A stretch of 64,000 bases of DNA from a virus, in the IMG/VR virus record IMGVR_UViG_3300027749_000062, positions 32,001-96,000 of that record. One strand, 5' to 3'. The position numbers and the translations under genes are program-made. The notes under the pieces are model-generated. The model saw nothing but the letters and a program-made list of their open reading frames with translations, made no database searches and was not told where the DNA came from. Of this stretch, positions 52,736 through 53,647 are shown in pieces; positions within the stretch are counted from its first letter, which is position 1, and every line of letters begins with the position of its first letter.

Positions 52736-53179
52736 TTAGAAACTAAATTTAACGCCAGCAGTAATACGGCTACCGTTTTCTGCAACAACCCGGTCTTGAC
52801 CAGCTTGGTAACTGTAATCAAGTCCTGCTGTAACTGACTTGGTAATTGGCATACGAGCACCAATACCAGCAGAAGCGGCATAACCATCATAAGCTGAACC
52901 TGATTGGCTATCGATAAAAAGAAGACCAAATTTAGCATCAATTGATACAGGTCCCATTTTTGATACCTCTACACTATTAACCAAACTGTAAGAGTCAGCG
53001 GATGTAGAACGATTGAATCCTGCGGTTAGGTTATAACCATGTACGGTTTCACCAACTGATACACCCCAAACATTTTGTGTTGAGCTAAGATTGGTGCCAT
53101 CATTGATACCAACTTCTAAAGCCTGTGCGCTTGCAAATACACCCATAAGGGATGCGATAAGTACGAGTTTTTTAATCAA
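52736..53179 (-). CDS. Small outer-membrane beta-barrel protein (OmpA/Ail/Lom-like)
   Basis: 147 aa. TTG start with AGGAG RBS, signal peptide ending AQA, alternating beta strands, C-terminal ...AGVKFSF BAM signature. Confidence 0.8.
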   Translation of the reverse strand: MIKKLVLIASLMGVFASAQALEVGINDGTNLSSTQNVWGVSVGETVHGYNLTAGFNRSTSADSYSLVNSVEVSKMGPVSIDAKFGLLFIDSQSGSAYDGYAASAGIGARMPITKSVTAGLDYSYQAGQDRVVAENGSRITAGVKFSF

Positions 53180-53202
53180 AATTTTCTCCTATTGTTGAAC
53201 AA

Positions 53203-53516
53203 ATTGCCGACTGATTGGATAATAAGGACAGTCGGCGAAACCTCAGCTTAGCTTAAGCAGCTAGGCGATATGCGGAGTCGTTTGCATTTACGTTTTTTGC
53301 TTGATTAACGGTCATCGCCTACCGTGCTGTCCACTCTGTTACTTGTTGCCCTGTCGAAACTATGCACCCCCATCAAAAACGCACCAAAGGACTTGAACCT
53401 TATTTCTAGAATAGTACCATACAACCAGAGCGACTGGCAGATGCGTTTTTGGTGGAGGTGGGGGGATTCGCACCCCCGTCCAGAACACTTTTCTCTTTGC
53501 TTCATACAGCAATAAA
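53203..53516 (-). ncRNA. ssrA: Circularly permuted (two-piece) tmRNA, tag ANDSAYRLAA
   Basis: On the minus strand the acceptor piece (...GTTCTGGACGGGGGTGCGAATCCCCCCACCTCCACCA, ending 53450) comes first. A 78-nt intervening sequence follows, then the coding piece starting GGGGGTGCATAGTTTCGACAG (53371). The G3:U70 pair is present. The tag ORF 53285-53253 reads GCA AAC GAC TCC GCA TAT CGC CTA GCT GCT TAA; a 3' hairpin lies at 53206-53236. Confidence 0.92.
53379..53446 (-). ncRNA. tRNA-like element inside the tmRNA intervening sequence
   Basis: 7-bp acceptor-like stem ACGCATC/GGTGCGT, D-like arm CCAG-TCGCT-CTGG, T-arm AAGG-TTCAAGT-CCTT; the anticodon arm does not pair. Confidence 0.5.
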
Positions 53517-53518
53517 AT

Positions 53519-53609
53519 ACACACTTAGGGAGATTCTCACTCCCGTACCCACAAAGTGGGAACTTAGTCTAATTGCACAGCTGAGCCATGTCCCAGTTCA
53601 TAAGTGTGT
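53519..53609 (-). ncRNA. tRNA-like element upstream of the tmRNA acceptor piece
   Basis: 9-bp stem ACACACTTA/TAAGTGTGT stacked on T-arm GGGAG-TGAGAAT-CTCCC, plus CTGGG-ACATGG-CTCAG and CCCAC-TTT-GTGGG arms; no anticodon stem. Confidence 0.55.
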
Positions 53610-53618
53610 TAATTATAT

Positions 53619-53647
53619 ATTGTATCACAGGATTAGAGACTTGTCAA
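53619..53647 (-). promoter_or_regulatory. Sigma70-type promoter for the tRNA-like/tmRNA/OMP transcript
   Basis: TTGACA-agtctctaatcctgtga (17 nt)-TACAAT. Confidence 0.85.

Follow-up and report, generated by a model that had tools for sequence, protein, structure and literature searches.

A conserved tRNA-like RNA element in the precursors of two-piece tmRNAs of T4-like phages

The precursor of a two-piece tmRNA in an uncultured phage carries, ahead of the tmRNA proper, a 91-nt RNA with four helices around a junction. This element is a selected RNA structure under purifying selection and not a gene or a fold that arose by chance. It recurs in relatives, where it is an optional cargo of the tmRNA precursor and a portable one, alternating between two positions, a leader upstream of the tmRNA and the spacer between the two tmRNA pieces. 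It is built on the plan of a tRNA, and it is not itself a tRNA. It represents an RNA family that has no Rfam entry, and as to kind it is a tRNA-like passenger or processing module. The explanation that we favor, at a rough probability of 0.45, is that of a tRNA-derived, non-decoding cassette that would be excised from the precursor by tRNA-processing enzymes and would have a role of its own. The alternation between leader and spacer and the evidence from tRNA register are new to this analysis.

The window, by which we mean the whole stretch of 64,000 nt that was analyzed, belongs to an IMG/VR virus record of 104 kb, about 62% complete. The CobS-like ATPase of this record is closest to those of the T4-like pelagimyophages HTVC008M and Mosig; the OM43 phage Melnitz is also described in the literature as kin of these phages. 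ARAGORN and Rfam detect a single permuted tmRNA in the window, on the minus strand and with the tag ANDSAYRLAA. Its bounds are 53162-53542 according to ARAGORN, whereas the Rfam model tmRNA_permuted matches 53253-53511 with 137 bits; the beta_tmRNA model also matches. The 104-kb record holds no tRNA genes, and neither a phage-encoded SmpB nor another obvious partner was found in the 62% of the genome that it represents. The promoter in front of the element (TTGACA-17-TG-n-TACAAT) agrees with the consensus at 11 of 12 positions and has an extended −10 box in addition; this block is kept in five relatives (L082, L084, L143, L150 and L155). Since no terminator-like site was found on the minus strand between promoter, element, and tmRNA, one common precursor, as had been proposed in an earlier reading of the letters by a model (the sequence-only reading), is the simplest interpretation. 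The gene directly downstream of the tmRNA (52736-53179, minus strand) codes for 147 aa; the N-terminus of the product is signal-peptide-like, and its C-terminus reads ...YSF. From its sequence the product appears to be an outer-membrane protein, and its gene adjoins the tmRNA in relatives as well; none of the flanking small proteins, this one included, has a match in Pfam.

Table 1. Features of the tmRNA locus in the window, with the corresponding locus of phage Mosig. Strands and pairing partners of the element are given 5′ to 3′ on the minus strand.
Feature	Position	Strand	Description
Promoter, sigma-70 type	53619-53647	minus	-35 TTGACA 53647-53642, 17-nt spacer with TG, -10 TACAAT 53624-53619
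Element (model R1)	53519-53609	minus	91-nt four-way-junction RNA on the tRNA plan; 120.2 bits, E 1.7e-28
P1, 5′ strand	53601-53609	minus	ACACACTTA; acceptor-like closing stem, pairs with 53519-53527, 9 bp
J1/2	53599-53600	minus	TG, invariant; position of tRNA residues 8-9
P2, D-arm homologue	53561-53598	minus	4-bp AACT/AGTT (53595-53598 with 53561-53564)
P2 internal loop	within 53561-53598	minus	GGGA / CAATTAGACTA, invariant
P2 inner hairpin	53576-53590	minus	CATGGC-TCA-GCTGTG
P3, stunted anticodon-arm homologue	53548-53560	minus	CCCAC-TTT-GTGGG
J3/4	53545-53547	minus	TAC, invariant, 3 nt; variable-loop position
P4, T-arm-like	53528-53544	minus	GGGAG-TGAGAAT-CTCCC; abuts P1, 0 unpaired bases between
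P1, 3′ strand	53519-53527	minus	TAAGTGTGT; followed by A/T-rich linker ATTTTAT
tmRNA acceptor piece	53450-53518	minus	end ...CACCTCC-A-CCA at 53450
tmRNA intervening segment	53372-53449	minus	10-bp closing stem around separate tRNA-like cargo, canonical loop TTCAAGT
tmRNA coding piece	53196-53371	minus	begins GGGGGTG; tag ANDSAYRLAA
tmRNA locus of Pelagibacter phage Mosig	MT647606.1 111558-111772	minus	shares the spacer layout

The architecture that the sequence-only reading had sketched for the element largely stands (Table 1). Its position and length were confirmed, with the start 9 nt past the −10 box and a gap of 7 nt between its end and the tmRNA_permuted match at 53511. The 9-bp terminal stem P1 indeed stacks on the perfect T-arm-like hairpin P4, the long D-like arm combines a 4-bp stem with an inner hairpin, and no CCA is encoded; across the variants described below, the 3′ flanks read ATTTT, TTTTT, TTGTA, or TTCTG. 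The likeness between the P4 loop and the T-loop of the tmRNA (TGAGAAT and TGCGAAT) was also correctly noted, the two being one position apart. The arm that had been called variable-like is present as a hairpin, but the versions of L139 and L158 identify it as the homologue of the anticodon arm, and the true variable region is the TAC of J3/4. Minimum-free-energy folding returns the same four helices. Their energy is by itself unremarkable (z = −2.3), and it is the conservation in relatives, not the folding energy, that places the element beyond chance. It occurs once in the 104-kb record, and the Rfam tmRNA models place it only as unpaired 5′ flank.

Two other interpretations of this stretch were tried and rejected. 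An internal ATG opens a frame of 10 codons in the window, whereas in L139 and L141 a different hairpin length shifts it; because the frame is not kept and the substitutions are compensatory in RNA terms, the element is not a protein-coding mini-gene. As to base pairing between element and tmRNA, the best candidate, 14 nt long and rich in G-U, pairs the element with the window's own spacer; we treat it as chance because that spacer (53372-53449) is not conserved in relatives that share the leader element.

Homologues of the downstream 147-aa gene led to a starting set of five phage loci, all with a permuted tmRNA and all but one with the element, and pattern scans of IMG/VR and metagenomes yielded further relatives. 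Together they amount to 34 instances with 18 distinct sequences; the contigs, about 24 in number, come from uncultured phages or metagenomes. All 34 matches of the covariance model (CM), R1, fall in loci of two-piece tmRNAs, which bears out the linkage to ssrA that the sequence-only reading had proposed to look for with such a model. Each locus has exactly one copy according to R1. Looking for extra copies across the rest of the window, among 181 fetched loci, and through four related phage records (571 kb in total, three of them complete genomes of 160-203 kb) yielded nothing but weak matches to tRNAs.

In the model-based alignment of the 18 variants, 99.2% of the cells in the helices are paired. 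Both sides have changed in 12 of 29 pairs; P1 contributes 7 (of its 9), P3 contributes 3 (of its 5), and P2a and P2b contribute one apiece. The observed values were reached by none of 500 shuffles, and registers that were slid along the alignment pair only in 24-46%. In P2a, AACT/AGTT is replaced by ATCT/AGAT in five variants, and the inner hairpin also occurs as CACGG..CCGTG and CATGC..GCGTG. P4 is essentially invariant in sequence (one G-U) and offers no covariation test. While the sequences of P1 and P3 have wholly changed, about 45 bases in loops and junctions persist (ATGA.CT.GGACA, GTGCAATTAGAC, G.GTACGGGAG, and ATCT.CCT). Since the sample of 18 variants from about 24 contigs comes from closely related T4-like phages, recent common descent could explain part of this sequence invariance. 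Structure is nevertheless conserved among these relatives, and with its compensatory changes and invariant D-region the element is not the ordinary decaying tRNA pseudogene that the sequence-only reading had allowed for.

The leader position is occupied in 15 distinct variants, including that of the window. Three further distinct variants, on four contigs, lie in the spacer of alpha-type (L139, L158) or beta-type tmRNAs (L146/L154). There the CCA is followed by a single nucleotide, an 11-bp closing stem, the core, CTGAT, and finally the coding piece with its G1, which puts the element 1 nt past the CCA and 5 nt ahead of G1. The type of tmRNA downstream of near-identical elements varies. Other relatives (L086, L171-L175, and Mosig) are without the element and make the tmRNA nonetheless; the weak matches in L086 and Mosig align to the T-arm of the tmRNA or to the closing stem of the spacer. 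L086, L172, and Mosig have no such cassette at all, and in L172 and Mosig transcription starts right at the acceptor piece.

The two positions also receive other cargo. A second RNA, about 95 nt long, structured, conserved, and unrelated to the first (module 2; for example, L082:2563-2662, plus strand), has the core ...GGTACACC(A/G)GATTACTCTAGGGAAACCT...GATAGACC, closed by a stem of 9-10 bp. L082 and L171 have it as leader, L172-L175 within the intervening segment, and a scan of L172 gave no Rfam match for it at E ≤ 10. The intervening segments of this phage group, that of Mosig included, all have a closing stem of 9-12 bp at the same place, with the common layout CCA, 1 nt, closing stem, variable cargo, closing stem, (N)TGAT or AT, and G1. 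The cargo ranges from the present element, the other tRNA-like unit of the window, and module 2 to mini-ORFs after AAGGA and, in Mosig, a loop of 20 nt. We also observe that the leader cassette, in its stem and flanks (T-AACACACTTA...TAAGTGTGT-T-run), resembles the spacer stem of Mosig, AAACACATTA/TAATGTGTTT; such sequence likeness gives hints that leader cassettes may derive from spacer cassettes.

In L142 (3955-4494, minus strand), as in L156, an inserted ORF for a 179-aa HNH-like protein separates the element from the tmRNA. The HNH-like motif is C-terminal, the last codons overlap the acceptor piece, and Pfam has no match for the protein at E ≤ 0.01. L084 retains only the 3′ end of this ORF (a remnant at about 2670-2700). 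The tmRNA downstream is of a different sequence type, which suggests that a homing endonuclease has driven replacement at the locus.

That the element follows the plan of a tRNA is shown by several features. A cloverleaf topology with the junction spacing of tRNAs is present, both in the covariation-supported helices and in the alignment of R1 to tRNAs; the junctions measure 2 / 0 / 3 / 0 nt, compared with 2 / 1 / 4-5 / 0 in tRNA. In the strongest of the tests, run with filters off, R1, which was built from the element alone, matches 10 of the 22 ARAGORN-called tRNAs of the related phage G003, at full model length, on the correct strand, and in register. Five of these (Glu, Leu, Pro, and two Arg) have E < 0.01, and in the 571 kb of the four related records the sole non-self match at E ≤ 1 is one of these tRNAs. 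In L139 and L158, P3 has 6 bp and 7-nt loops (CTTTTAA and CTTTGAA) that fit Y-U-NNN-R-N, with different "anticodons". When the inner hairpin is taken out of the L139 version, ARAGORN at lowered thresholds calls a tRNA-Lys(UUU), a call obtained for 0 of 2000 shuffles.

The element is not a tRNA, however. The tmRNA is the only call that ARAGORN makes in the window, and at E ≤ 10 Rfam lists no tRNA match for the element, be it the version of the window or that of L139. Instead of a 7-bp acceptor stem with discriminator and CCA there is a closing stem of 9 bp, or 11 bp in the spacer versions, so that P1 and P4 add up to 14-16 bp versus 12 bp in tRNA. A D loop of 7-11 nt with G18 G19 is replaced by GGGA, a 15-nt hairpin, and CAATTAGACTA, that is, by a conserved 30-nt insertion with its own hairpin at the D-loop position. 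In place of a 5-bp anticodon stem with a 7-nt loop, the window has 5 bp and the 3-nt loop TTT; the 7-nt anticodon-like loop is kept only in L139 and L158, and most variants have 3-6 nt. The P4 loop reads N-G-N-R-R-A-T, with a variable third base, and not T-psi-C-R-A. Elbow mimicry, which the sequence-only reading had put forward, is conjectural for this element, whose 7-nt loop is not a conserved T-loop and has no conserved elbow partner. One variant of the P4 loop, GGCGGAT, resembles the consensus T-loop of alpha_tmRNA, GGCgGUA. We also looked for covariation of the P4 loop with the T-loop of the same phage's tmRNA and discarded the idea, as no consistent pairing emerged.

Among known RNAs, tRNA itself (RF00005) shares with the element the cloverleaf, the 4-bp D stem, and the 5-bp T stem with 7-nt loop stacked on the terminal stem, and the T-arms of tRNA-Pro and tRNA-Arg of phage G003 are close to its GGGAG..CTCCC. 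The tRNA-like domain of tmRNA offers another parallel, with GGAC and a T-arm where the element has GTAC and GGGAG-7 nt-CTCCC, and with T-loops (TGCGAAT, GGCGGTA) that resemble those of the element (TGAGAAT, GGCGGAT). In contrast to that domain, the element has a D-like stem and is without G3:U70, CCA, or pairing to the coding piece. The stable RNAs of the T4 tRNA cluster and bacterial Y RNAs (YrlA) are comparable as small stable RNAs that have tRNA-like ends or a tRNA-like module, are products of the tRNA-processing machinery, and serve functions that are poorly understood. From these systems the element differs in having the tmRNA as its partner RNA, in the absence of a Ro-binding helix, and in the absence of an Rfam match at E ≤ 10.

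Database searches placed the element in no described family. Rfam scans of the window region, L139, and L172 (gathering thresholds and E ≤ 10) returned only tmRNA models and noise. When the locus and the L139 tmRNA were compared by blastn with 50,697 phage records, cultured phages yielded only short T-arm matches. Two patterns run against 185,579 bacterial and archaeal species genomes gave 0 and 1 matches, none of them credible; the single one lies inside a coding region of a Melainabacteria genome, has no CM support, and was rejected as chance. A looser pattern gave only chance matches over viral contigs. A paper on tmRNA that does not mention the element (PMC11915505) describes an intact tRNA-Ala in the intervening sequence of one permuted tmRNA and calls it unique. 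That case is likewise a tRNA-type cargo in the spacer of a two-piece tmRNA. It differs in being a normal, high-scoring tRNA in a single record, whereas the element is a recurrent non-tRNA family that also occurs as leader.

Permuted tmRNA precursors are reported to be cleaved by tRNA-processing enzymes (PMC11915505), and we propose that the element would be handled in the same way. It would be co-transcribed with the tmRNA from the strong early-type promoter. Going by shape and context, RNase P would cleave P1 at its 5′ base, and the A/U-rich linker on the 3′ side would be the target of RNase E or exonucleases. In the spacer slot, the RNase P cut would leave an acceptor piece with CCA plus 1 nt; as the element lies there between the CCA and G1, it must be excised for the CCA end of the tmRNA to be exposed. 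The freed RNA of about 90 nt would be neither chargeable nor able to decode, would look like a tRNA or tmRNA, and would most likely bind a factor that recognizes tRNA shape.

A function of its own is supported by the retention of the element despite the HNH-like gene inserted between it and the tmRNA, and by module 2, an unrelated RNA that occupies the same two slots. Moreover, since its core is invariant across slots and tmRNA types, and since sister loci dispense with it for excision, the element is probably more than a nuclease handle, which favors a released mimic. It is possible, though on balance we doubt it, that the tmRNA precursor serves as a launch platform with two slots for exchanged, stem-closed cassettes, from which the element, derived from a tRNA with a rebuilt D region and released by tRNA-processing enzymes, would act in trans on the host's tRNA- or tmRNA-handling machinery (for instance SmpB, RNase P, elbow-reading enzymes, or a defense nuclease) while the phage takes over ribosome rescue. 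The role in protecting translation that the sequence-only reading had envisaged is pure conjecture.

A simpler account would see in the element only punctuation or a folding aid, an RNase P (and RNase E) handle that acts in cis to separate the pieces of the pre-tmRNA and is then discarded. Precedents exist in the separation of polycistronic tRNAs by RNase P, in the cut by RNase P at mascRNA that makes the 3′ end of MALAT1, and in the tRNA punctuation of mitochondrial transcripts; mascRNA and menRNA, which lie downstream of MALAT1 and NEAT1, are likewise non-decoding tRNA-shaped units within a longer non-coding precursor. The spacer versions suit this account well. They sit 1 nt past the CCA and 5 nt before G1, every intervening segment of the group has its 9-12 bp closing stem at the same place, and the window's own spacer carries another tRNA-like unit, with a weak match to the mascRNA-menRNA model (E 0.12). 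In L139, L146, and L158 the placement, 1 nt after the CCA, is that of the mascRNA type, downstream of the RNA whose 3′ end is defined. The element of the window, in contrast, lies upstream of the acceptor piece, and the earlier suggestion that tRNA-like units generate the tmRNA ends, which agrees with the spacer relatives, fits it poorly. The leader slot needs no precise cut, and the transcripts of relatives begin directly at the acceptor piece; excision does not depend on the element, since most sister spacers manage with other cargo; and some 45 invariant bases outside the helices exceed what a nuclease handle needs. Compared with mascRNA, the element belongs to a bacterial or phage setting, has no sequence kinship, and is dispensable in sister loci. 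We regard punctuation as the sole role of the element as unlikely.

The covarying helices and the conserved junction and internal loop would also suit an aptamer, and most leader versions have a T-run after P1. The element might accordingly be a cis regulator of the riboswitch kind, a four-way junction whose ligand-dependent P1 steers read-through into the tmRNA or its processing; a glutamine riboswitch has been reported within the ssrA gene of Melnitz (PMC9004378). That we consider this improbable has several reasons. No Rfam riboswitch family matches the element at E ≤ 10, whereas the glutamine riboswitch of Mosig (RF01739), our positive control, was detected, 19 kb away from the tmRNA. Neither an alternative pairing nor an expression platform nor a terminator-like site on the minus strand was found. 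The T-run is missing in L084 and in all spacer versions (CTTCTGAT), and it belongs to the leader of the tmRNA as well. Finally, the tRNA register of the CM matches speaks for tRNA ancestry rather than an aptamer. A functionless passenger, be it a decaying tRNA pseudogene or a selfish insert tolerated in a non-coding transcript, was already disfavored and is in our view the least probable reading of all. The anticodon loop reduced to 3-6 nt in most variants, the absent CCA, and the optional occurrence among relatives would agree with it, as would a locus that is a hot spot of recombination, with its HNH-like insertion, swapped tmRNA types, and variable cargo. Decay would have cost the element its pairing, however, and we find four helices with compensatory changes and an invariant insert in the D-region across phages with alpha- and beta-type tmRNAs; nor is it a decayed gene, the internal ATG frame not being conserved.

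Phage tmRNAs are known, yet we know of no explanation for them, and to our knowledge the spacer of two-piece tmRNAs has so far been treated as discarded sequence. The precursor described here bears at least two conserved, portable structured RNAs, one of which clearly descends from the tRNA plan although it is unable to decode. Should the excised cassette that we favor be released and active, it would mean that phages send out accessory tRNA mimics along with their ribosome-rescue RNA, a clue to the purpose of phage tmRNA. Were it a processing handle only, it would be a counterpart, in bacteria and their phages, of the MALAT1-mascRNA pair, and would help to explain how permuted tmRNAs acquire their CCA ends. 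In either case, R1 can serve as a starting point for annotation of the family.

Two further observations concern the related loci. Some spacers contain ORFs that begin 5-7 nt after an AAGGA made by the first bases past the CCA. They comprise 23 codons in L082/L109 and are longer in the 174-nt spacer of L114/L123, and L159 has a hydrophobic mini-ORF; judging from these sequences, the "discarded" spacer possibly codes for small proteins. A cluster of 22 tRNA genes within 3 kb (L180, G003:C1:165000-168087) is present in the 203-kb relative, a complete genome with the element in its L085 type.
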